From: Candidatus Micrarchaeota archaeon
GTDB taxonomy: Archaea > Micrarchaeota > Micrarchaeia > Norongarragalinales > SBBD01
Length of the DNA: 64,000 bases
Assembly (NCBI GenBank): GCA_018819225.1
Contig: JAHJQN010000004.1
Span: 273,715-337,714, forward strand
Direction of reading: 5' to 3'
This document shows, one piece after another, positions 7,423 to 62,913 of this stretch; the first letter of the stretch is position 1; every line of letters begins with the position of its first letter. Under the pieces are notes generated by a model. The model made no database searches. It was not told where the DNA came from and saw only the letters and a list, made by a program, of their open reading frames with translations. A program made the translations under genes and the position numbers.

Positions 7423-8523
7423 TCACCACCAATACGCGAGTTTTTTCAACCCCGTGATTTCAGACGTCCCCCTTCCCGCGTAATGACGCCCCCTAAACTC
7501 GACGCGCGCTTCATTCGGGAACGCCGCATAATCGATATCGGCCGAGCGCACCTTCAAAGGACTTAACAACGTGACGCCCTTAATTAATCTTTTCTTGGGT
7601 GCATGCAAAGCCGTCGCTTGAATGCGCAAATGACCATCCGGAGTCGAAGCCGAAATATGAGGTTTTCGTCGCACGTGACTCTCAGTACTCGTCGCATCGC
7701 CAAACAAGTGAAAGGCCCCGCTCATCAAATCCACGACGTAGACTTGATAATTAATGGGTATCCGCGTCTTCTGCAGTTCAACAAAAAACTTCATGAGACC
7801 CACAAACTTCGGATTCCCCTTACCCAACGTCGGTACGCAATAGAAAATGTTCCAGTTCCATCCCGCCGAAAACAAGGGCAACGCAATATGAACCATTTCC
7901 GTGTACGCAAACGGCGACTCCAACCACTTTCCATTAATGCATTCCAATTCCGGGGGCAGGCGAACCGAGTTCGGTTGTCCTTCAATATCTAAACGCATGC
8001 GGGCCTTCAACGGATATAATACCCAACTGGCGAGCACCTGATTAAACACCGTAAACACGCACCGATAATTCCCGATTTTGCGACGAATCCGAGAGAAATC
8101 GTATTGAAACACCAGATCCGCCTTCTTTCGCTTGACCACGAACCGAACCTTCGACTGCAACGCATTGAATCGCCATCGCAGTTCCCGCTCGGAATCGGAA
8201 ACGAGCGCTTCCCGGGGATAGAACCGGGATTTGCACGAACCCTCTCCAAACAACCACGTCTTTTTCCCGCTGCGAAGCTCATGAAATAAATAATTTTGGT
8301 GTTCATCAAACGCCAGACCAATAAACGATTGAAGAACCTCTGCTCCAAAATAGCCGTACAACCAACCTCGCTCGAAAGCCGTTGACGAACCCTGAAACAG
8401 TTTTTCCTTTGAAAAAAAGGAAGAGAACACGGCATGCTTGGGATCGTGCGGAGGCACGCGCCGCACCCCCCGCTTACGCCCATCAAAATAAAATTCGAAA
8501 ATGTCTTGATTGCTTCCCTTCAT
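7423..8523 (-). CDS. hypothetical protein (366 aa)
   Basis: Long ORF whose stop overlaps the ELP3 start by 4 nt; no motif recognised. Confidence 0.45.
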   Translation of the reverse strand: MKGSNQDIFEFYFDGRKRGVRRVPPHDPKHAVFSSFFSKEKLFQGSSTAFERGWLYGYFGAEVLQSFIGLAFDEHQNYLFHELRSGKKTWLFGEGSCKSRFYPREALVSDSERELRWRFNALQSKVRFVVKRKKADLVFQYDFSRIRRKIGNYRCVFTVFNQVLASWVLYPLKARMRLDIEGQPNSVRLPPELECINGKWLESPFAYTEMVHIALPLFSAGWNWNIFYCVPTLGKGNPKFVGLMKFFVELQKTRIPINYQVYVVDLMSGAFHLFGDATSTESHVRRKPHISASTPDGHLRIQATALHAPKKRLIKGVTLLSPLKVRSADIDYAAFPNEARVEFRGRHYAGRGTSEITGLKKLAYWW

Positions 8524-13560: not shown

Positions 13561-13659
13561 GCCTCCGTAGCTCAGGGGTAGAGCGCCTGTCTTGTAGGGA
13601 TGGTTAGAAACGCGTTCCAAGAAAACAGGAGGTCGCGAGTTCAATTCTCGCCGGAGGCT
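13561..13659 (+). tRNA. tRNA-Thr(TGT) with 27-nt canonical (37/38) intron
   Basis: Hand fold: acceptor GCCTCCG/CGGAGGC, D arm GCTC-AGGGGTA-GAGC, anticodon stem CCTGT/ACAGG with loop CTTGTA|intron|A, T arm GCGAG-TTCAATT-CTCGC, discriminator T. Intron about 13597-13623. Confidence 0.8.
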
Positions 13660-13891
13660 TCCGGAAATAATTATTTTCTGTTTTTCTTTCTGGAACATGA
13701 CCTCGCCAGTTTGAGTGTGACCTTCGCCGGTTTGGCTCCAACCGTAATTGACTTGAATTCGACGCGTTGAATGAGAATTTCGTGTGCAACGCGTTTCCGC
13801 ACTGCGGGTACGCGACATCCTTTTCAATCGAACGCCATTTCCGCACAGGACTAAAAAACGGCTTTTGGGTTCGATGAGGGAAACCAGAAAC

Positions 13892-54916: not shown

Positions 54917-54932
54917 ATAGTGCAGGGGGAGT
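54917..54932. repeat. att-like copy 0 of tRNA-Leu 3' end
   Basis: ATAGTGCAGGGGGAGT on the plus strand. Its reverse complement CTCCCCCTGCACTAT matches the tRNA-Leu acceptor 3' strand + discriminator. Confidence 0.5.
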
Positions 54933-55017
54933 AAGCGCAGCCGTGGGCTTGAAGCAGACCATCGGAATCCTTGTCCGAAGAAACATTTAAATATTTATCA
55001 GTTGATATATTTATCGG

Positions 55018-55311
55018 TTGATTAATATGGAAAATATCTTCGTTTCGTTCAAGCCCCGGAATTTGGACCGCTATCCCCGGCTGGATACCGTACTCATGGT
55101 GGAAAAGGAACTCTTCAAGCACCGTAGCGACAAGACGATTACGGAAATCTGGAGAGGACTTCCAAGGAAAGTCCTGTGGACGACGTACACCACCATTCTT
55201 GATTACTTGGAATATTCGGGCAAGATCCACATCGAGAAGGACAAAACGATTACGTGGCTCTGGAACCCCCAGCTATTGGAGCGAATAAAACGAGAGGGCA
55301 TCGAAGCATGA
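55018..55311 (+). CDS. small winged-helix-like protein (putative antitoxin/regulator), cassette 1
   Basis: 97 aa; paralogous to 57186-57461 (DTVLMVEKELF...ILDYLEYSGKI vs KTVIMVEEVLA...ILEYLEASNKI). ATGA overlap with the downstream gene. Confidence 0.45.
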   Translation: MINMENIFVSFKPRNLDRYPRLDTVLMVEKELFKHRSDKTITEIWRGLPRKVLWTTYTTILDYLEYSGKIHIEKDKTITWLWNPQLLERIKREGIEA

Positions 55312-55658
55312 ACGATTCCCGCACTATCCGCGTGCGCTTTGTAGACAGGAAGCTATACGAGACATACCTCAAGTTGAAGGCGGGAAAAACGGAAGAAAAG
55401 AGACTGGCGGAATACTTGGAACGAGCCATCCAAGACCTCAAGAAGGACCCGTTTTGCGGCATCCAAATCCCCCGTAGACTATGGCCGAAGGATTACGTGC
55501 GAAAATACGGCATCAACAACTTGCGGAAGTACGATTTGCCGAACGGCTGGCGATTAGTTTACACGCTGGTCGGCAACCAAATCGAGATTGTTTCCATCCT
55601 CTTGGAATGGTTCAAGCATAAAGAGTACGAAAAACGCTTTCATTACAAGGTAAGATAA
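55308..55658 (+). CDS. RelE/ParE/YoeB-superfamily toxin-like protein, cassette 1
   Basis: 117 aa. KKDPFCGIQIP...WRLVYTLVGNQIEIVSILLEWFKHKEYEKRFHY fits the RelE/YoeB pattern (conserved G, WR..Y, C-terminal H.Y). Paralogous to 56833-57189. Confidence 0.45.
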   Translation: MNDSRTIRVRFVDRKLYETYLKLKAGKTEEKRLAEYLERAIQDLKKDPFCGIQIPRRLWPKDYVRKYGINNLRKYDLPNGWRLVYTLVGNQIEIVSILLEWFKHKEYEKRFHYKVR

Positions 55659-55670
55659 CCATTTTCACGT

Positions 55671-55688
55671 CTGAGTGCAGGGGGAGGG
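55671..55688. repeat. att-like copy 1 of tRNA-Leu 3' end
   Basis: CTGAGTGCAGGGGGAGGG; 18 of 19 nt match the tRNA-Leu 3' end including part of the T stem. Confidence 0.55.
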
Positions 55689-55782
55689 CAGCGAGCCTAT
55701 GGCTCTGTGCAGACCGGCTTGTCGTGTATTCGTAGTCATATTTGTAGAAACCTTTATATATTTGTAGTCACCTAAGGATCGT

Positions 55783-56724
55783 ATGCATATCGAGATTCGC
55801 ACGATCGGCAGGAAAAAGAAATTCTACCTTGCTCATTCGTACCGCCGGCAAGGGAAAGTAGTTAAACTGCGGGTTTATCTGGGGTCTGGCCTTTCCTCAG
55901 ACGAATTGGCTGCAAGGAAGGTCCGTGCTGAAGAGCGTCTCAGTTTTCGGATTTCGGCAATAGGCTCAATCCGAGATCCGTTTCAAACGGCTCTCTCCGC
56001 CAGCGAACTGCGGGAACTTGAAACACTCGAAACCAGGGGGGAAATCGCAGTAAGGTACCTGTCGGAAGAGGACTGGCGCAAATTCACCGAAGCGTTCGCA
56101 TTCGACACCAACGCCATCGAAGGCTCTTCGGTTCTTGCAAACGAAGTCGGCGACATTCTGGAAAGGGACAAGTGGCCGGACAAACCGAAAGAAGACATTT
56201 CCGAGACTTACGGGGTTGCCAAGGCAATCGAATTCATACGAAAGACCAAAGACCCCGTTTCCATTCCCCTCGTACTCGAACTCCACCGGCTGGTCTTCCG
56301 GAATTCGAAACCGTTTGCTGGAAGGCTGCGCGGTCGAGGTGTCGAAGTGGTAATCGGCGACGGGAGAGGCAACGTCATCCACCGCGGCGCGCCTTCCACG
56401 CAGGTGCGTAGCCTACTGGGCAAGCTAGTCAAATGGTACGGTGAGAACAAGAAAAAATATCCTCCACTGGTACTGGCCGCCGTGGTGCATAACCAGTTCG
56501 AGAACATCCACCCGTTCCAGGACGGCAACGGCCGAGTCGGAAGGCTGCTATTGAACAACATCCTCCTCAAGCACGGCCTTCCCCCGCTAAACATCGAGCT
56601 CCGCAACCGGCAGGAATACTACGCCGCCCTGCAGGAATACGAGCGCAGCCAGAACATCCGGCCGACAATCGAGCTGATGCTTAAGGAATACCGCGCCCTC
56701 AAGCGGCTGCTCAAGAAAAGGTGA
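55783..56724 (+). CDS. fic: Fic-domain protein (AMPylase/Doc-Fic family) with internal inhibitory helix motif
   Basis: Fic signature HPFQDGNGRVGRLL (HxFx[DE]GNGRxxR) and upstream TNAIEG ([ST]xxxE[GN] inhibitory motif); 313 aa. Confidence 0.8.
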   Translation: MHIEIRTIGRKKKFYLAHSYRRQGKVVKLRVYLGSGLSSDELAARKVRAEERLSFRISAIGSIRDPFQTALSASELRELETLETRGEIAVRYLSEEDWRKFTEAFAFDTNAIEGSSVLANEVGDILERDKWPDKPKEDISETYGVAKAIEFIRKTKDPVSIPLVLELHRLVFRNSKPFAGRLRGRGVEVVIGDGRGNVIHRGAPSTQVRSLLGKLVKWYGENKKKYPPLVLAAVVHNQFENIHPFQDGNGRVGRLLLNNILLKHGLPPLNIELRNRQEYYAALQEYERSQNIRPTIELMLKEYRALKRLLKKR

Positions 56725-56773
56725 CTACAAACCCGCAAGCGTAGTCACCCAATGCGCAAACCCCTGGAACTCA

Positions 56774-56799
56774 CAGCCCAAGGCTGAGTGCAGGGGAAG
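56774..56799. repeat. att-like copy 2 of tRNA-Leu 3' end
   Basis: CAGCCCAAGGCTGAGTGCAGGGGAAG vs tRNA-flank CAGCCCAGGGCTGAGTGCAGGGAGAG (24 of 26). Confidence 0.6.
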
Positions 56800-56832
56800 T
56801 AGCTCAAGCCAACGTCTTGCTGCAGTCTCTGA

Positions 56833-57189
56833 TCACTTGCGTTTGTAACCGAACCGCTTATCGTATGTCCCGTGAGGACTGATTTCAAGGACGAAGGCAA
56901 CAATTTCAACTTCTGTTCCCCCTTCGGTCAGCGAATACAGCATTCTCCAGAATTGAGGGAGTTCTACGCGGAACAGGTTCTTGATCCCGTACTTCCGCTT
57001 GTACTCGTCAGGAATCTTATCTTTAGAGATGGGCTCTCCATAATGAATGTTGGCCTTGATCAGCTCGACTTTTTTATTGATTGCGTTCAGGATGCTCCTG
57101 TCGCGTTTTGACTTGGGTGCTCGCTCATTCAAATACCGGTACACTTTCTCAGCTTCCGGCGAGAGAACGACTCGGACGGTCTTGTTCAT
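56833..57189 (-). CDS. RelE/ParE/YoeB-superfamily toxin-like protein, cassette 3
   Basis: 118 aa. YGEPISKDKIP...WRMLYSLTEGGTEVEIVAFVLEISPHGTYDKRFGY; paralogue of 55308-55658. Confidence 0.45.
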   Translation of the reverse strand: MNKTVRVVLSPEAEKVYRYLNERAPKSKRDRSILNAINKKVELIKANIHYGEPISKDKIPDEYKRKYGIKNLFRVELPQFWRMLYSLTEGGTEVEIVAFVLEISPHGTYDKRFGYKRK

Positions 57190-57461
57190 AGCTCAAGGCC
57201 TCTGGCAATGGCTTTCCTGAGAGCAGGATTGTCATTGGCGATCCATGAAATACCTTTCAGGGAAACAGCGATCTTGTTGCTGGCCTCCAAATATTCTAAA
57301 ATAACCATCAAGGTATAGTGGTTGACCTGCTTCGGAAGCATTCTTTTCAGTTCGGCAATTGTAATGACGCTCTTCTTCATGTTTGCCAAAACCTCTTCCA
57401 CCATGATGACGGTTTTCAAGTTCGGCGCATGCGCAAATTCCACGTTATACATAGTCATCAC
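57186..57461 (-). CDS. small winged-helix-like protein (putative antitoxin/regulator), cassette 3
   Basis: 91 aa; ATGA overlap with the downstream toxin-like gene; paralogue of 55018-55311. Confidence 0.45.
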   Translation of the reverse strand: MMTMYNVEFAHAPNLKTVIMVEEVLANMKKSVITIAELKRMLPKQVNHYTLMVILEYLEASNKIAVSLKGISWIANDNPALRKAIARGLEL

Positions 57462-57621
57462 TTTATTTTACAAATTCATAACCTATTTGTATTTATTAGT
57501 ATATTTAAGCCTTTCGGTACCTCGTTTTAACTAATCAAAGGAAATAGGTAGAAGCGTACAGCCTATAGGGGAAGTCACCGTAGACGATTCTACAGCTGGG
57601 CACTTCCAGCCCAGGGCTGAG

Positions 57622-57766
57622 TGCAGGGAGAGGGATTTGAACCCTCGAAGCTTCTACAGCACAGGATTTCCTAAAACCCTTTCTTTTCTCGTCGAGGTCT
57701 TTTCTTTACAAAAAGAAAAGAGGTCGCTTAAGTCCCGCCCCTTTGACCGAACTTGGGTACCCCTGC
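57622..57766 (-). tRNA. tRNA-Leu(TAA) with ~59-nt canonical intron
   Basis: Minus-strand fold: GCAGGGG acceptor, D arm CCC-AAGTTCGGTCAAA-GGG, anticodon stem CGGGA/TCCTG with loop CTTAAG|intron|A, long variable arm GCT-GTAGA-AGC, T arm GAGGG-TTCAAAT-CCCTC, 3' TCCCTGC-A. The exons resemble archaeal tRNA-Leu. The intron forms a long perfect hairpin. Confidence 0.7.
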
Positions 57767-57848
57767 GTAAACCTTTTTTTAATGAAAGCTTAAAAGCGTC
57801 ATGGATACGCCTAGATGAATGAACTCATAGGCGTTAATGCGCCGCGGA

Positions 57849-58013
57849 TTACTTGCCTCCGCCCTTGGCTTCCTTTCGGCGCGCGCGCTTGGGTCGCAAA
57901 TGAGGATAATTGCACTTGCGGCACTTCACCGTCCCTTTCGGATTGCGCGTCTTGCATTTCAAGCAAACGACGACCGATAGAAACGCTTTGTCAGCTAAAG
58001 GAAACTTGCCCAT
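57849..58013 (-). CDS. rpl40e: 50S ribosomal protein L40e (54 aa; absent from the ORF track)
   Basis: Translation MGKFPLADKAFLSVVVCLKCKTRNPKGTVKCRKCNYPHLRPKRARRKEAKGGGK has the eL40 C4 zinc-ribbon pattern (C-x2-C...ARNP...C-RKCG...LRPK). Confidence 0.7.
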   Translation of the reverse strand: MGKFPLADKAFLSVVVCLKCKTRNPKGTVKCRKCNYPHLRPKRARRKEAKGGGK

Positions 58014-58134
58014 ACTGGTTCACGAAAACTTCTGTAAAAGAAGAGAATACTGGTATGGCTACCAACGTTTTTAAAGGCTATTTTGTCCTAAGAAAGAGGT
58101 AGCTGCTTCTTTACCCCGATGGTTGATTTGACAT

Positions 58135-58295
58135 GCCTCCGTAGCTCAGTAGTAGAGACGGAACCTTTTCTTTTTTAATAGAAAAGCTTCACCAAAAGAA
58201 GAAGCGAATAAAAGCGCCTCCGTAGCTCAGTAGTAGAGCGCGAACCTTTTCTTTAATAAAGAAAAGCTTCACCAAAAGAAAGCGCGTATTCCCAT
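58135..58295 (+). repeat. two tandem ~80-nt units, each = tRNA-Thr 5' half (positions 1-25) + promoter-like spacer, preceding the intact tRNA-Thr(GGT)
   Basis: GCCTCCGTAGCTCAGTAGTAGAG(A/C)(C)G at 58135 and 58216. Each is followed by GAACCTTTTCTTT(TT)AATA(A)AGAAAAGCTTCACCAAAAGAA, which is homologous to the region upstream of tRNA-Thr(TGT) at 13507-13545. Confidence 0.6.
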
Positions 58296-58367
58296 GCCTC
58301 CGTAGCTCAGTAGTAGAGCGCTTCCTTGGTAAGGAAGAGGTCGCGGGTGCGATTCCCGCCGGAGGCT
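58296..58367 (+). tRNA. tRNA-Thr(GGT), intronless
   Basis: GCCTCCG-TA-GCTC-AGTAGTA-GAGC-G-CTTCC-TTGGTAA-GGAAG-AGGTC-GCGGG-TGCGATT-CCCGC-CGGAGGC-T. Confidence 0.85.
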
Positions 58368-58380
58368 TGAATTCTTTTTT

Positions 58381-60468
58381 TTAATTTCGTATCTTCTTGT
58401 GAATGACGCGTTTACGTTTGTCGTGGAAGAACCAAGCACTCGCTACAGCCACTGAAAAGAGTAGAATAAGCCAGACGCTGTTAGAGAAAAGACCTCGTTC
58501 CTCTTGACGACGTCGATATTCTTGTTCAGCCGCAAGATACCCTGACTCTCCCCGCAAAACGGTTTGTTTCGGAATCCCCACCATCAATGGACTGCCACCA
58601 GGAGGCCAGCGAGTCGGAACCGGTGAAGGAGTGACCGTGGATTCGGGCTCGCCCATTCCAGAAGGAACGTACTCCAGATCATTCGTTATCAACAGCTTGT
58701 CTAATTGCATTCCATCCTCACGGTTGCGAACCGTCAACGTATGGAAACCAGCGGAAAGATCAAACGCAAGAGGATCCAAAGGAGGAGAACGGCTGTTCGC
58801 GACATCCCACCGCCACACGTTGCCGCCCGCCGTATCCCAAATATATTCTGCACCGCCATCCATGCGAATGAACACGCTGTCTGCTGCCGTGTGAGGAGAC
58901 AATTCACGACCCCAAACGCGATATTCTCCTGAAACGGGAACCTCGAAAGAATAGGTCAAGAGGTCGGCGTCGCCGCCTGCATTGAACGGAACGAGCACGA
59001 ATTCGCCATTGGAAGCGTCTTCATCCACATCAATGACCCACGCTCCGAGCAAGGACGAAAAGTGTTCGGCCTCCACCCAATAATAGGAGTATCCCGGAAC
59101 AGCCGTAGGAGAACATGAACCCAAACAACATACGCCGGACCCGCAATACCCTTCATCCTCCAAGAAACAATCATCGTAGAAACCGCAGTTGGCGCGACAC
59201 GACCCACCCAATGCTTCGCAAGGAACGGGTGTCGGCGTGCTCGTGCACGATCCGATACAGCAGATTCCAGTCGAACAATAACCCTCGGCATCCCAAACGC
59301 ATTCATTGAATTGACTACAATCCTCTAAACATTGTCCGCCCAAATCCTCCTCGCAATAAATATCCGAGCCGCCGCCTTCAAAAGTCAGCGTGGCCTGGAT
59401 GAGATTGAAGGAATCGAACGATCCTTGTCCGGAAAACACGAGCCAAACCGTTTCTCCATTCGCGCTGATCCACTTGCTCGGAAAATTGTAAAAGAATGAA
59501 GGCTCGTAATCCCAAGAATCAAAAATGGCTACGGTATACCAGGGCCCCCAAGGATTCGGTGCCTCAAAAATAGACATGCCGCTACCTGAAACCCCGCCGT
59601 TGTCTCCCACGTGGTGATCGCCGACCAATAAGTACCTCCCCGAAGGAGAATGATACGTGACAACCGGAGGTGCCCAACCCACATTCTCTTTAATGAAAAC
59701 GGGTTGTCGGAGAGTCAAGTCATTCGTCCATTGGTTTAAACCAGTCGAGAATTCATACTGATCCCGATCCCAAATGAAATCTTTAGGAACGCGCATTAAA
59801 TCCACTTCCCCGGGAACCTGAACCTTGAGACCGGTAGCATCCTTCAACCGCGTCGCGTACATATACACGAATCCATCCGGCGACGCCGCATCCTCCCCGT
59901 ACTGCGAGATGCTGGGTAAAATCAATTCGTTTTCTTCAGTGAACATCCAATTGTTTTGAAGTTCCCAAGTTGCCCCATGATCGTACGAACGCGCCAGCCT
60001 CGCATTATCGTAATTCATATTATTGGAACCCGGACTGACCCACATGTATAATACGCCATCAATGGAAACGATCCCGTAAGACTTGCCGGTAAACGTAGCG
60101 GGATTTTCTGCAGCACACGAAGCAGGAGGCGCATGTTCTGGATTTTCGCAACTGCCGTCCCCCAACGCATGGCACCCCCATAAATTGACGGGCACGAAAT
60201 CGACGGCATCCCCTTCAATGCGAGTTAAACCCAAACTAGCGCGACAAAGGGTATTGGATCCTTCAAAACCGCCTCCGTCACCCCAACTCGTGTATTGATG
60301 ACCGTCATCCGCCCAAGTCATCGGAAAATTATCGCTTCCTGAAGCGGCATTGAAATAGGTCGCAGGATTAAACGAGATGTCGGTAATGACGGTGCTTGAC
60401 GGATACGCCACGTTCAGCGAAAGAAAACATATGAAAAAAACAAGAAAGGTACGGAATGCCCCTCGCAT
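58381..60468 (-). CDS. large secreted/surface protein: N-terminal glycoside-hydrolase-like/beta-propeller-like region, two 8-Cys modules, shared ~150 aa domain, C-terminal TM anchor
   Basis: Signal peptide. Modules CEEDLGGQCLEDCSQFNECVWDAEGYCSTGICCIGSC and PCEALGGSCRANCGFYDDCFLEDEGYCGSGVCCLGSC. The domain YYWVEAEHFSS...LLITNDLEYVPSGMGEP is paralogous to 10580-13423. C-terminal TM. Confidence 0.7.
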   Translation of the reverse strand: MRGAFRTFLVFFICFLSLNVAYPSSTVITDISFNPATYFNAASGSDNFPMTWADDGHQYTSWGDGGGFEGSNTLCRASLGLTRIEGDAVDFVPVNLWGCHALGDGSCENPEHAPPASCAAENPATFTGKSYGIVSIDGVLYMWVSPGSNNMNYDNARLARSYDHGATWELQNNWMFTEENELILPSISQYGEDAASPDGFVYMYATRLKDATGLKVQVPGEVDLMRVPKDFIWDRDQYEFSTGLNQWTNDLTLRQPVFIKENVGWAPPVVTYHSPSGRYLLVGDHHVGDNGGVSGSGMSIFEAPNPWGPWYTVAIFDSWDYEPSFFYNFPSKWISANGETVWLVFSGQGSFDSFNLIQATLTFEGGGSDIYCEEDLGGQCLEDCSQFNECVWDAEGYCSTGICCIGSCTSTPTPVPCEALGGSCRANCGFYDDCFLEDEGYCGSGVCCLGSCSPTAVPGYSYYWVEAEHFSSLLGAWVIDVDEDASNGEFVLVPFNAGGDADLLTYSFEVPVSGEYRVWGRELSPHTAADSVFIRMDGGAEYIWDTAGGNVWRWDVANSRSPPLDPLAFDLSAGFHTLTVRNREDGMQLDKLLITNDLEYVPSGMGEPESTVTPSPVPTRWPPGGSPLMVGIPKQTVLRGESGYLAAEQEYRRRQEERGLFSNSVWLILLFSVAVASAWFFHDKRKRVIHKKIRN

Positions 60469-60510
60469 GGAACCACCTATTTCTTACTAGTCTTCCTCGG
60501 TTTTAATAAG

Positions 60511-60556
60511 TGCGGGCTTTGCACCTTTTGGGCGAGCCACGCCGGAGGCTTACGGA
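60511..60556. repeat. direct repeat A containing a tRNA-Thr 3'-end-like core (CGCCGGAGGCTTACGGAAA)
   Basis: GTGCGGGCTTTGCACCTTTTGGGCGAGCCACGCCGGAGGCTTACGG; 42 of 46 nt identical to repeat B. The core matches the tRNA-Thr(TGT) 3' end + flank (CGCCGGAGGCTTCCGGAAA). Confidence 0.55.
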
Positions 60557-60580
60557 AAAGCATGACAAAAAGGCGATCGA

Positions 60581-60823
60581 TTAGGAATAAATATTCTGAC
60601 GGTGCCCCGCGTCATGCAAGCGAACGGCGTTCTTGCTTAAAGAGTAAATGATCCGGTAGTCGCCGACCCGCAAGCTAAAGAAATTCGACAGGCGCCCGTG
60701 AAGCCGTTTGCCCGCGCGAGGAAATTGGCCAAGAAGCGTAACTTCACGGAGCAGCCGCACCCGAATATTGCGAGGCAACTTGCGGAAAGACTTTTGGAAG
60801 TGATTGGAATAAAGCACTTCCAT
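60581..60823 (-). CDS. relE: type II toxin RelE/ParE family
   Basis: 80 aa. LGQFPRAGKRLHGRLSNFFSLRVGDYRIIYSL...HRQNIY is a classic RelE/ParE signature (G..L.G.....LRvGdYRiiY...HR...Y). Confidence 0.8.
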   Translation of the reverse strand: MEVLYSNHFQKSFRKLPRNIRVRLLREVTLLGQFPRAGKRLHGRLSNFFSLRVGDYRIIYSLSKNAVRLHDAGHRQNIYS

Positions 60824-60828
60824 GCGAA

Positions 60829-61023
60829 TTACACCTTCAGATTAACAATGGAATGAAATCGGCCATCCGAAAAATCCTTCTCAGATGAACGAATTCCTTT
60901 TAGTAGTTTCTTGTCTGCGAGGACTTCCAGCGTTTCCTGCAAAGATTCGAAAGCATCCCTGGCTTCTTCAAAGCTCTTCTTCGCTGCGTTCAATTCCTTC
61001 CGAATAGATGAACCGACGTACAT
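60829..61023 (-). CDS. putative cognate antitoxin (RelB/Phd-like)
   Basis: 64 aa, located 5 nt upstream of relE. The C-terminus ETLEVLADKKLLKGIRSSEKDFSDGRFHS resembles antitoxin C-termini. Confidence 0.5.
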   Translation of the reverse strand: MYVGSSIRKELNAAKKSFEEARDAFESLQETLEVLADKKLLKGIRSSEKDFSDGRFHSIVNLKV

Positions 61024-61101
61024 TCTAAGTCCCTTACAACAGCAGTAAAACGAGCTTTATAATACTTGCTAGACACGAGCGCCATTGGATTTGTCTCGAG
61101 G

Positions 61102-61147
61102 TACGGGCTTTGCACCTTTTGGCCGAGTCCCTCCGGAGGCTTCCGGA
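61102..61147. repeat. direct repeat B containing a tRNA-Thr 3'-end-like core (CTCCGGAGGCTTCCGGA)
   Basis: GTACGGGCTTTGCACCTTTTGGCCGAGTCCCTCCGGAGGCTTCCGG. Confidence 0.55.
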
Positions 61148-61223
61148 TTTTTAGATTTCAACGGCAGCATACCCTTCCGAAAGGAATATATATGGACTTA
61201 GTTCATATTGATATGGTGATAAC

Positions 61224-61454
61224 ATGGTGCATGCATTAGTCAATATTTCGGAAGAAGCAAACCGCGTGTTGAACGTGATTAAAGCGAAAAAGAATTTGCG
61301 AACCAAATCAGAGGCGATTGAGGAGATGGCGCGAGAGTACGAGCAAGAACTCTTGGAACCCGAACTTCGACCGGAATACGTGGAACGCATTCGGAAAATC
61401 GGCAAGCAAAAAACGATTACAGTGAAGGACTTCGAAAAAGAGTTTCTGAGCTGA
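61224..61454 (+). CDS. putative antitoxin
   Basis: 76 aa, 7 nt upstream of a RelE-like ORF. Confidence 0.4.
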   Translation: MVHALVNISEEANRVLNVIKAKKNLRTKSEAIEEMAREYEQELLEPELRPEYVERIRKIGKQKTITVKDFEKEFLS

Positions 61455-61461
61455 TGGCGGC

Positions 61462-61728
61462 ATGTATGGTCTCGAAGTGTCTCCGGAAGCGTATGCCCGG
61501 TTCAAAAAGATGCGAAAAAAGAACCGCTGGCTACTCGAAGTCATTGGCAAGAAGGTCCGGCATATACGCGAGCGCCCCCATCATTTCAAACCGCTTCATT
61601 TCCCCCTTCATAACAAACGACGGGTCCATATTGCGGGATCGTTTGTACTCGTCTATGAAATCAGGGAAAAAGACAAAACCGTTGTCATCATAGACTTCGA
61701 CCACCACGATAACGTTTACATGAAATGA
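61462..61728 (+). CDS. type II toxin RelE/ParE family
   Basis: 88 aa. RPHHFKPLHFPLHNKRRVHIAGSFVLVYEIREKDKTVVIIDFDHHDNVY fits the RelE pattern. Confidence 0.65.
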   Translation: MYGLEVSPEAYARFKKMRKKNRWLLEVIGKKVRHIRERPHHFKPLHFPLHNKRRVHIAGSFVLVYEIREKDKTVVIIDFDHHDNVYMK

Positions 61729-61775
61729 CGGAATCGGTTTAAGCGAACGAATGGATGGGGGTATATCGTTTGAAT

Positions 61776-61794
61776 GAGTCCGGCCGGAGGCTCT
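61776..61794. repeat. direct repeat C (GAGTCCGGCCGGAGGCTCT), partial tRNA-Thr 3'-end-like core
   Basis: Shares GAGTCC..CCGGAGGCT with repeat B. Confidence 0.4.
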
Positions 61795-61848: not shown

Positions 61849-62913
61849 TCATACCCACTTTTGTTTCCGGAAATAAAACAGCATGACGAATGATATCGCG
61901 ATCATGAACATCCAGAGAATCGGATAGGCTAACGGCCAATCCAACTCGGGCATGAAACGAAAATTCATGCCGTACACTCCGACAATGAACGTCAGCGGAA
62001 TAAAGAGAGTGGCAATAACGGTTAAGGTCTTCATGACCTCGTTCATCCGATTGCTGATGCTGGACATGTAGAGGTCCATCATCCCGGATAAAAGATCGCG
62101 GTACGAATCGATGGAATCAATGGCGTGGATGATGTGGTCGTAAACGTCCCGCAAGAACACGGCGGTCTGGTTCTTGATCAGCTTCGATTCGTTCCGCTGG
62201 AGTCCGCTGATGACTTCCCTCAATGGCCACACGCCCTTCCGCAAGAACACCAAATCCGTTTTCATGGCGTGAATGGAATGCAGCGTGGACTGGGACGGGT
62301 TCGCCACCAGTTCTCCCTCCAATTGCTCTATGCGTTCCCCCAATTCCTCCAGAATGACAAAATAATGGTCGACGACGGAATCGATCAACGTATAAAAAAG
62401 GTAATCGGCGCCCATCCTCCGAATCCGTCCTTTTCCCTTGCGAAGACGTTCGCGAAGCGGATCAAAAACGTCTCCGGGTTTTTCCTGAAAAGAAATCACG
62501 TACTGCTTTCCAAGAATCACGCTGACTTGTTCGGACTCCACCCTCTTTTTTTCCCGATCAAAATAGAGCATTTTCATGACTAAAAAAAGGTGGTCCCCGA
62601 AATCCTCGAGCTTGGGGCGTTGATCAGTATGGACGATATCCTCGATGAGCATCGGATGAAAACCCAAACGATCTCCCAGTTTCTGGATCCCTTGCGAATC
62701 GTGCACGCCGTCCACGTTAATCCACGTAATCGAGGGCGCGTCTTTGATCGGAAAACACGCATCAAACGAGTCCGGTTTAAGTTCTTTCACGTCATCCGAA
62801 GTAAAATTAAAAAGCGTGATTTCCACGCGATCCGTTTTCTTTTCGCCCACGAATACTGCCGTACCCGGACTCAACCCCGCTTTCTTTGAAGCCCTTTTGA
62901 AATACCGCGACAT
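61849..62913 (-). CDS. corA: CorA magnesium/cobalt transporter
   Basis: C-terminal YGMNF (GMN motif) followed by two TM helices; cytoplasmic N-domain; 354 aa. Confidence 0.85.
   Translation of the reverse strand: MSRYFKRASKKAGLSPGTAVFVGEKKTDRVEITLFNFTSDDVKELKPDSFDACFPIKDAPSITWINVDGVHDSQGIQKLGDRLGFHPMLIEDIVHTDQRPKLEDFGDHLFLVMKMLYFDREKKRVESEQVSVILGKQYVISFQEKPGDVFDPLRERLRKGKGRIRRMGADYLFYTLIDSVVDHYFVILEELGERIEQLEGELVANPSQSTLHSIHAMKTDLVFLRKGVWPLREVISGLQRNESKLIKNQTAVFLRDVYDHIIHAIDSIDSYRDLLSGMMDLYMSSISNRMNEVMKTLTVIATLFIPLTFIVGVYGMNFRFMPELDWPLAYPILWMFMIAISFVMLFYFRKQKWV

Follow-up and report, generated by a model that had tools for sequence, protein, structure and literature searches.

We analysed a 64-kb stretch of chromosomal DNA from a metagenome-assembled genome (MAG) of Candidatus Micrarchaeota (the whole stretch is called the window hereafter), in which two neighbouring divergent tRNA genes, for tRNA-Leu and tRNA-Thr, each head a stack of three small units. 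Since the array behind tRNA-Leu is accompanied by a divergent array behind tRNA-Thr, the region 54919-61793 is a back-to-back pair of tRNA-anchored stacks with six units, five of which are of toxin type. Displaced copies of the 3' end of the respective tRNA gene bound the units, and we consider it quite probable that tyrosine-recombinase integration, repeated at the very 3' end of the tRNA genes, formed the locus.

The tRNA-Leu(UAA) gene is located on the minus strand at 57622-57766, and was found with Rfam RF00005 (38 bits, model positions 1-71; the tRNA gathering threshold is 29 bits) and with ARAGORN in the intron mode. The gene has a 62-nt insertion (intron) in the anticodon loop and a long variable arm, and the anticodon was read as UAA from the loop sequence CUUAA. 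Default ARAGORN misses this intron-bearing gene and sees only tRNA-Thr at this locus. The acceptor 3' strand, UCCCUGC, makes a G7-U66 wobble, and the acceptor still pairs. Judged by its full-length Rfam match, the target gene is regenerated intact in sequence, and it is probably the live integration target, on the attB side.

The end of this gene recurs downstream of it. The 13-mer AGTGCAGGGGGAG (plus-strand reading) was found with at most one mismatch at 54919, 55674, 56787 and 57620 and nowhere else in the 64 kb, and all four matches, compared with 0.01 expected from shuffled sequences, are on one strand. When no mismatch was allowed, CCCCTGCACT was found in the three displaced copies only. 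The displaced copies are all downstream of tRNA-Leu and on its strand, and the four copies are spaced 755, 1113 and 833 nt apart. The first-pass annotation of this DNA had described four direct copies of the tRNA-Leu 3' end at intervals of 0.75-1.1 kb, and the number, beyond chance, and the spacing were both confirmed. As to the extents of the copies, copy 3 reaches into the T stem (17/18) and copy 4 covers 13 nt, as had been proposed, but copy 2 matches the tRNA end at 23/26 positions by count, not at 24/26.

Copy 1 (57600-57634, minus strand) has its core within the tRNA end (CCCTC-T-CCCTGCA), followed by the trailer palindrome GCACT CAGCC CTG GGCTG GA AGTGC; its fold as single-stranded DNA has an energy of -8.2 kcal/mol (z -1.6). 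Copy 2 (56761-56828, minus strand) consists of the core CCCCTGCACT, the shared trailer and a 29-nt arm next to unit C (56800-56828). The match of copy 2 to the tRNA end (26/30 by a repeat finder) includes a 15-nt trailer that is not part of the tRNA, and this trailer lies within a 14-bp imperfect palindrome at 56761-56796 (-10.8 kcal/mol, z -3.0). Copy 3 (55671-55715, minus strand) has the core CCCTCCCCCTGCACTCAG, identical to the tRNA end at 17 of 18 positions, and the unit B arm (55687-55715), and copy 4 (54919-54960, minus strand) has the core CTCCCCCTGCACT and the unit A arm (54932-54960). The chromosomal flank past copy 4 is presumably the original one. The minimal segment common to all four copies is CCCTGCACT, made up of six bases of the acceptor, the discriminator and two bases of the trailer. 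Read in the tRNA orientation, the three displaced copies without exception have CCCCTGCA with C, whereas the live tRNA has TCCCTGCA with U66; this difference would be explained if the crossovers all fell within CCCTGCACT and the incoming sites carried C.

On the tRNA-body side of the displaced cores there are arms of 30-45 nt, which are similar to one another and unlike the tRNA body. The arms follow the pattern (G/A)TCTGC - AG(C/A)C NNN G(G/T)CT - GCGCTTAC-like - core. Their similarity was significant for arms C and A (z = 4.9, p ~ 0.0005) and lower for arms B and A (z = 2.0), and an alignment of five sites was ungapped. The trailers of copies 1 and 2 are near-identical palindromes, and copies 3 and 4 have no hairpin. 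Such a pattern of arms and trailers would be expected if three related attachment sites had recombined in turn with one tRNA end. Covariation in the small arm hairpin was limited to one compensating pair (AGCC/GGCT versus AGAC/GTCT), which is too little to argue for a structure.

In each interval of the tRNA-Leu array there is a single compact transcription unit, which has an AT-rich region of its own upstream, along with operator-like repeats. Unit A (54961-55670, plus strand) contains a winged-helix gene (55027-55311) and a RelE/ParE-fold gene (55308-55658). Upstream of them is an operator-like direct repeat, ATATTTATC(A/G)GTTGAT, in two copies, which is conserved in L028, one of the DPANN loci collected around homologues of the toxin (designated by L numbers hereafter). 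The homologous operon in L028 has 71% nucleotide identity to unit A, and its toxin 75% amino acid identity. Unit C (56800-57606, minus strand) has a winged-helix gene (57186-57458), a RelE/ParE-fold gene (56833-57189) and its own AT-rich promoter/operator region; a homologous operon, with a toxin 76% identical in protein sequence, is found in L031, where the flanks differ. Units A and C are thus both two-gene operons with 4-nt overlaps; they are paralogous at 44% and 37% identity and have opposite orientations, so that the orientation of the cargo is independent of that of the site.

For the larger protein of these pairs, the Pfam ParE match (E = 1.7e-4, 22.6 bits) is just below the cut-off of 23. 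Its AlphaFold2 model (pLDDT 78.6) gave PfiT, RelK, ParE and YoeB as top Foldseek matches (probability 1.00, TMq 0.55-0.59), which points to a RelE/ParE/YoeB fold. The model of the smaller protein (pLDDT 67) had winged-helix domains for all of its top matches, with weak E-values of about 0.03, and we predict a winged helix with moderate confidence. A small upstream, overlapping and predicted DNA-binding partner, together with operator repeats, gives these modelled pairs the layout of type II toxin-antitoxin (TA) systems, and the units would be expected to have toxin activity. Across DPANN lineages there are more than 1,400 members of this toxin family, most of them about 117 amino acids long. 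The closest relatives of the window units are 75-81% identical in protein sequence, and the homology covers the promoter and the genes only, the flanks being different.

Unit B (55716-56760, plus strand) contains a fic gene at 55783-56724 (Pfam Fic, E = 4.9e-19; also matched by NCBIfam). In its translation, the active-site motif HPFQDGNGRVGR and an inhibitory motif, TNAIEG, N-terminal to it in the same chain were read, and by these motifs the predicted protein belongs to class II, which is defined by HxFx(D/E)GNGRxxR and an N-terminal (S/T)xxxE(G/N) helix. The modules proposed earlier for the three intervals, namely a winged-helix plus RelE/YoeB-like pair, a class II Fic and an inverted paralogous pair, were therefore recovered one per interval by Pfam, by AlphaFold2 with Foldseek and by sequence identities, and the proposal that the small genes belong to ParE-type families agreed with the profile and fold searches. 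The fic gene is flanked by a perfect 13-nt inverted repeat, TTTGTAGTCACCT / AGGTGACTACAAA (55761-55773 / 56719-56731). Around it (55738-55773 and 56719-56746) we also noted ATATTTGTAG repeated in tandem upstream and, past the stop codon, a GTGACTAC...GTAGTCAC hairpin. The flanking repeats may be an autoregulatory operator common to both ends. A full-length homologue, 30% identical, lies behind tRNA-Leu(CAA) in L113. A general linkage of Fic with TA units is at best weak, as homologues of the Fic protein were found in only two other organisms among 92 loci.

The second, divergent array, which the first-pass annotation had overlooked, is headed by tRNA-Thr(GGU) at 58296-58367 on the plus strand (ARAGORN; Rfam, 71 bits). 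Three further copies of the end of this gene, CGCCGGAGGCTT, are located on the same strand as the gene, at 60540, 61133 and 61783. Unit 1 of this array (58368-60509, minus strand), bounded by the tRNA end and copy T2, has a single DUF4185 gene (58381-60468, Pfam). Copy T2 (60510-60551, plus strand) consists of an arm and the core CGCCGGAGGCTT, 12 nt of the tRNA-Thr end. Unit 2 (60552-61100, minus strand) has a ParE-like toxin gene (60581-60823; Pfam ParE_toxin, weak) and a small partner (60829-61023), and is followed by copy T3 (61101-61142, plus strand), with an arm and the core CCGGAGGCTT. Unit 3 (61143-61768, plus strand) has a DUF2683 partner (61224-61454) and a ParE toxin gene (61462-61728, Pfam), and copy T4 (61769-61793, plus strand), with the core GCCGGAGGCT and a partial arm, forms the end of the array before corA. 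Over 47 nt, the arms of T2 and T3 share 87% identity, and they are not related to the arms of the tRNA-Leu array. Judged from the sequences, the tRNA-Thr array is an independent replicate, in the same window, of the design seen behind tRNA-Leu.

Some further features of the tRNA genes were noted. Directly upstream of tRNA-Thr (58135-58295) there are two tandem units of about 80 bp, each of which begins like the tRNA itself, for 24 nt (GCCTCCGTAGCTCAGTAGTAGAG), and continues with a palindromic TATA-like element, AACCTTTTCTTTAATAAAGAAAAGCTT; ARAGORN in the intron mode takes 58216-58367 for a single tRNA that has an intron of 66 nt. Slippage and a scar of 5'-end recombination are candidate origins of these units. 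The upstream region of tRNA-Leu and a part of its intron resemble the AACCTTTTCTTTAATAAAGAAAAGCTT element. A second, intron-bearing tRNA-Thr gene is located at 13561-13659, with its trailer at 13649-13670 (CCGGAGGCTTCCGGA; TTCCGGAAATA). Copy T3 (61133-61147) and the DNA past the tRNA-Thr array (61865-61875) match this trailer and not that of the adjacent tRNA-Thr, which hints that units or flanks may have moved between the two genes. In addition, a tRNA-Lys(CUU)-like gene at 51065-51140 matches Rfam at positions 8-63 only and has no acceptor 3' strand past the T loop, and the same strand is missing in L005 (6656-6714); this gene may have a non-canonical T-arm intron, be a split tRNA or be truncated.

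The two arrays are surrounded by housekeeping genes, those for topoisomerase VI, TruD, eIF1A, aIF2-beta and MsrB on the left and those for CorA, GTP cyclohydrolase, dCTP deaminase and NurA on the right. A UQ_con gene (E2-like ubiquitin-conjugating enzyme) adjoins the NurA gene, about 2.3 kb past the right end of the window (L001, 20485-20942). The Fic protein and its neighbours are identical on the ENA contig k141_304414 (709 kb, ERZ27247117) and on a Logan contig.

The same design was found in other DPANN loci, for which the contexts of the toxin homologues were collected and scanned for tRNAs with intron-aware settings. In L045, the tRNA end CGGCTGAGGCC recurs at +1048 and +1825 and bounds a gene for an unknown protein of 235 amino acids and a winged-helix plus RelE pair, and no integrase was found among the eight larger open reading frames (ORFs) of this 8-kb contig. 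L089 has four copies downstream of its tRNA. In L112/L113, the end of tRNA-Leu(CAA), TGTCTCCCACA, recurs at +1177 and +1869/1935, the copies bounding a unit with the full-length Fic homologue and a winged-helix plus RelE unit. Note that these two assemblies are identical apart from an indel of about 64 nt at the start of the winged-helix gene (L112, 3736; L113, 5719-5784). L029 has a 36-nt duplication 114 nt downstream of its tRNA. No acceptor-end copy was found upstream of the tRNA in L045, L089, L112/L113 or L029; all copies are downstream and on the same strand. In every case the core matches the tRNA of its own locus, and the repeats are thus no conserved motif that travels with the cargo. 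In total, long direct repeats that are not of low complexity flank the pair at about 10 of the 59 loci of the toxin family (about one in five), and a control with reversed sequences gave none.

Several of the collected loci have arrays of other kinds. The arrays in L073 (4722-7480) and L031 (5551-8418) are composed of toxin units of 0.7-1.3 kb (RelE pair, winged-helix plus RelE, Doc); the repeat is a short hairpin (GCAGTTC CATGACGCCA GAACTGC) in L073 and TCACCGGCCAGGAC in L031, and both may represent a different type of site. L028 (GCA_043807785.1, JAZDFO010000028.1, 4855-11654) has eight copies of an imperfect palindrome of about 55 nt, ACTCAGAAG...CTTCTGAGT(G/T)CAC, often in adjacent pairs 69 nt apart, which separate SLFN/AlbA, MazE-PIN and winged-helix plus RelE units. 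These palindromes have TGCACTCAG in common with the tRNA-Leu end of the window. A zinc-ribbon integrase gene is located outside the leftmost palindrome, and the contig has no tRNA. The motif CCTTCGTGC, common to L028 and L033, is absent from the window.

A candidate for the recombinase was suggested by these contexts, in which, unlike in the window, an integrase gene lies beside related sites (L118, L117, L034 and L028). In L028, the closest relative of unit A is in a repeat-delimited array beside a tyrosine recombinase of 391 amino acids with a C-terminal zinc ribbon. The family of this enzyme has 2,767 matches at 55-60% identity across Micrarchaeota; it is XerA-like (103.9 bits, with a XerA cut-off of 220) and below every curated cut-off. 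In another Micrarchaeota genome (L118/L119), CTGAGTGCAGGGGGAGTAAGCGCAG lies about 80 nt upstream of the gene for P0195, a tyrosine integrase with a zinc ribbon, which is followed by methylase and conjugative-pilin-like genes. This site is identical at 22 of 22 nt to the core of copy 4 plus the unit A arm of the window. In L117, a 15-nt copy of the tRNA-Asp end is located about 210 nt upstream of the gene for integrase P0194, with tRNA-Asp itself 9.5 kb away, and in L034 elements of 4.9 kb and 7 kb, both carrying an integrase, stand in tandem and are bounded by tRNA-end copies. In L033, an integrase-less HicAB unit stands with a winged-helix plus RelE unit, and the distal site belongs to the same att family. 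From the contexts of the integrase in L028, L118/L119, L117 and L034 and the att family in L033, the zinc-ribbon family is most likely the enzyme behind the window arrays and, as far as comparison of sites and contexts can tell, the best candidate for it. A housekeeping XerA was considered for this 55-60% conservation and is disfavoured, because in L034, L117 and L118 the integrase edges foreign DNA bounded by tRNA ends and because the family is below the XerA cut-off. As an additional observation, the second integrase ORF of L034 (6761-7942) crosses the tRNA-end core (7890-7901), the last 14 or so codons being past the junction, which recalls SSV-type integrases, whose att site is inside the gene.

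From the common polarity of the copies, the C/U66 difference, the arms, the tRNA-Thr array, the recurrence behind other tRNAs and the linkage of site and integrase in L118, we infer recombination and its order as follows; serial integration into tRNA-Leu, with the older units pushed away from the gene, had been proposed in the first-pass annotation. A circular element would carry a site composed of an arm of about 30-45 nt, a copy of the last bases of the tRNA (core CCCTGCACT) and a short trailer. On recombination with the tRNA-Leu gene, the tRNA would be rebuilt unchanged and its former end moved to the distal border of the insert. The element arriving next would use the rebuilt tRNA, so that the units would stack with the oldest furthest from the gene, in the order A (oldest), B and C (youngest), and the same process would have taken place behind the divergent tRNA-Thr. 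The recombinase would most likely be a Micrarchaeota tyrosine integrase with a C-terminal zinc ribbon, encoded on none of the six units nor elsewhere in the window. The units would now be integrase-less single-operon modules, and five of six are of the TA or Fic type with their own promoters and operators; that such modules are addictive would account for their being kept in a streamlined genome.

Several points weigh against serial integration. Copy 4 matches the tRNA end over 13 nt only. The arrays of L031, L073 and L028 use repeats without a tRNA in reach, and therefore not every such array need derive from a tRNA. No recombinase is encoded in the window, as had been noted in the first pass: there was no Phage_integrase or Resolvase match of Pfam on any called gene across the 64 kb, and tblastn with five integrases against the window gave only noise at E <= 1 and no integrase remnant. 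None of the best 120 of the 2,767 matches of the zinc-ribbon family is on the 709-kb contig, and recombination by this family is a prediction from sequence. All six units are extremely compact and without pseudogene debris, and simple decay does not predict such compactness. In addition, other assemblies of the source organism hold the same array, with no presence/absence polymorphism. Neither an unoccupied site nor such a polymorphism was found in GTDB, in metagenomes or among the collected loci. A GTDB scan with TruD gave L005 as the sole relative, in which synteny stops at aIF2-beta and the array region is not syntenic, and a metagenome DNA scan with the tRNA-Leu 3' exon gave no match. In the search for related strains, exact look-up of L40e and the MsrB of 124 amino acids returned no record, and MsrB homologues were from distant taxa only. 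An all-against-all comparison of the collected loci showed no pair differing by a unit, and no excised circle, shuffled order or cassette polymorphism. Viral contigs gave no match to the tRNA-Leu 3' exon, to the toxin family or to the integrase family, and the 22 matches of a 15-mer core among them were judged consistent with chance.

The static structure of the locus fits two routes equally; the first-pass annotation had likewise left the choice between a degraded stack and capture by a recombinase encoded elsewhere. In route (a), larger integrase-bearing elements would integrate and then be reduced by deletion to the addictive module. The arm of unit A is the arm that abuts the integrase gene in L118, suggesting descent from integrase-bearing elements, and near-empty units are found in L089 and L029. 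Decay to att-flanked, integrase-less cis-mobilizable elements (CIMEs) and their accretion at tRNA gene ends have been described (PMC5704250), and arrays of mobile genetic elements (MGEs) with tyrosine recombinases have been noted in archaea (PMC6563490). In route (b), the tRNA 3' end would be the equivalent of attI in an integron-like platform for gene capture: the units would never have carried an integrase, and ready-made, promoter-bearing cassettes, each composed of cargo, arm and core, would be inserted and excised in trans by a zinc-ribbon recombinase encoded on the chromosome or on an MGE. The six units are single genes or operons whose non-coding DNA is only arm and promoter, as are those in L045, L089, L113, L033 and L073, and there is no integrase debris. 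The arms are uniform within an array and differ between arrays even in one genome, those of the tRNA-Leu and tRNA-Thr arrays being unrelated. Homologous TA operons lie between different repeats in different genomes, the opposite orientations of units A and C show that cargo is placed independently of the site, and non-addictive single genes are also retained (DUF4185; a membrane protein in L089). The flanking repeats at about 10 of 59 toxin-family loci, with none in the reversed control, also favour route (b). Against it, the comparison of collected loci showed no circle, reordering or gain and loss of cassettes, the unit A arm is the one found against an integrase gene in L118, the folding of the arms is no better than that of shuffled sequences, and protein identity to the closest homologues of the cassettes is only 75-81%, which gives no sign of recent mobility. 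We regard capture of this kind as possible but rather unlikely, and the same doubt applies to the broader proposal of a tRNA-anchored gene-capture system in DPANN, integron-like without IntI or attC, in which a conserved zinc-ribbon recombinase would insert and excise single-operon cassettes at the very 3' end of tRNA genes, so that TA, Fic and other accessory genes would be stacked in array-specific fashion and exchanged across lineages. We lean slightly toward reductive decay of integrase-bearing elements, in the manner of CIMEs.

Other origins of the repeats fared worse. Local segmental duplication and inversion of one ancestral tRNA-adjacent module would account for the paralogy of units A and C and for their arms being the most similar pair. 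The paralogues are only 37-44% identical, however, and are inverted while the arms run direct; the cargo of unit B and of the tRNA-Thr array is unrelated; the nearest relatives of A and C, at 75-81% identity, are in other genomes and far closer than A is to C; and the design recurs behind other tRNAs elsewhere. This origin is thus very improbable. Still harder to sustain is a canonical integron or CALIN (cluster of attC sites lacking an integron-integrase), in which an IntI-type integrase acts on folded attC sites. A compact cassette array rich in TA genes would suit it, and archaeal MAGs are reported to contain integrons, most of them CALINs with a cargo rich in TA genes (PMC9668308). What excludes it is that IntI, attC features and significant folding of the arms are all lacking: there is no IntI in the window and the linked family reaches 38.8 bits with the integron-integrase model TIGR02249, whose cut-off is 265; the repeats, read directly in the aligned sites, are direct copies of the tRNA end without R''/R' GTTRRRY boxes; and attC-like folding of the arms was rejected, their energies being no better than those of shuffles (z +0.2 to +0.5). 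The cassettes also have their own promoters, with operator-like repeats, and both orientations, unit C being inverted relative to A and B. The integron-like array suggested in the first-pass annotation can therefore be kept as an analogy and not as an identification. The least credible origin is that the repeats are matches due to chance or low complexity, or tRNA-like elements retained for a role in RNA processing or termination. It would fit the short, G/C-rich core and the trailer hairpins of copies 1 and 2 between convergent genes, but four matches were found where 0.01 are expected, the arms are conserved across genomes and linked to an integrase, the hairpin is missing from copies 3 and 4, and the displaced copies match no Rfam family. 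Target-site duplication by a transposase was also considered and rejected, because the repeats range in length from 9 to 36 nt and have conserved arms beside them.

Serial integration at the tRNA ends, our preferred explanation, has parallels in known systems. In Firmicutes, integrated elements and CIMEs of the ICESt1 type accrete in tandem at tRNA 3' ends (PMC5704250). The window shares with these stacks the integration at a tRNA end, the integrase-less units still flanked by attL and attR, the tandem stacking on a regenerated site and a TA cargo, which can stabilise such islands. Unlike them, the host is an archaeon (DPANN), the window units are single operons of 0.6-2.2 kb, the six units stand behind two divergent tRNAs with no conjugation or relaxase context, and the associated recombinase family, with its C-terminal zinc ribbon, is uncharacterised. 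A CIME-like remnant is defined by its lack of an integrase, and by this analogy the locus may best be read as an archaeal counterpart of bacterial CIME accretion.

Within archaea, the SSV-type and pNOB8-type tyrosine integrases and the 'gene capture' in Sulfolobus chromosomes are to be compared. Common to the window and these viruses and plasmids are tRNA-gene targets, direct repeats of tRNA fragments, tandem re-use of sites and captured elements unable to excise. Unlike the SSV/pNOB8-type elements, of which the SSV-type integrases have been reviewed (PMC7253208), the window has no split or intact int gene in or beside its units, its core is at the very 3' end (9-18 nt) and does not span a long downstream half, its elements are one operon long, and the linked integrases are XerA-like and below curated cut-offs. 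With integrons and CALINs (PMC9668308), the arrays share compact, TA-enriched cassettes, sites similar within an array and a recombinase that is off the cassettes and often missing. They differ from them in having neither IntI nor an attC GTTRRRY hairpin, in insertion at a tRNA end and not at attI, and in cassettes with their own promoters and mixed orientation, where integron cassettes are mostly promoterless and read in one orientation from Pc. A further comparison is with the pdif modules of Acinetobacter plasmids, which are small, often contain TA pairs and are bounded by short sites for a Xer-like recombinase encoded elsewhere; the pdif sites themselves, for XerC/XerD, are 28 bp long, inversely oriented and located on plasmids. 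Unlike these, the sites of the window are direct repeats from tRNA ends and chromosomal.

Integration at tRNA ends with tandem accretion is already known, and the comparisons support the view that the form seen here, in a DPANN archaeon and behind two divergent tRNAs, is unusually minimal and cassette-like. It also explains tRNA-gene fragments that confuse annotation, at a locus where the key intron-bearing tRNA is missed by default tools. The mobile elements and the routes of gene flow of DPANN archaea are poorly known. The present locus and its relatives yield a concrete site, a 9-nt core at the tRNA end with an arm of about 30 nt, a candidate recombinase family, and a recurrent outcome, in that addiction or defence modules come to be stacked behind the tRNA genes of very small genomes. 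They offer a testable system for the acquisition and retention of accessory genes by streamlined symbionts, and possibly a bridge between classic integrated elements and cassette systems.

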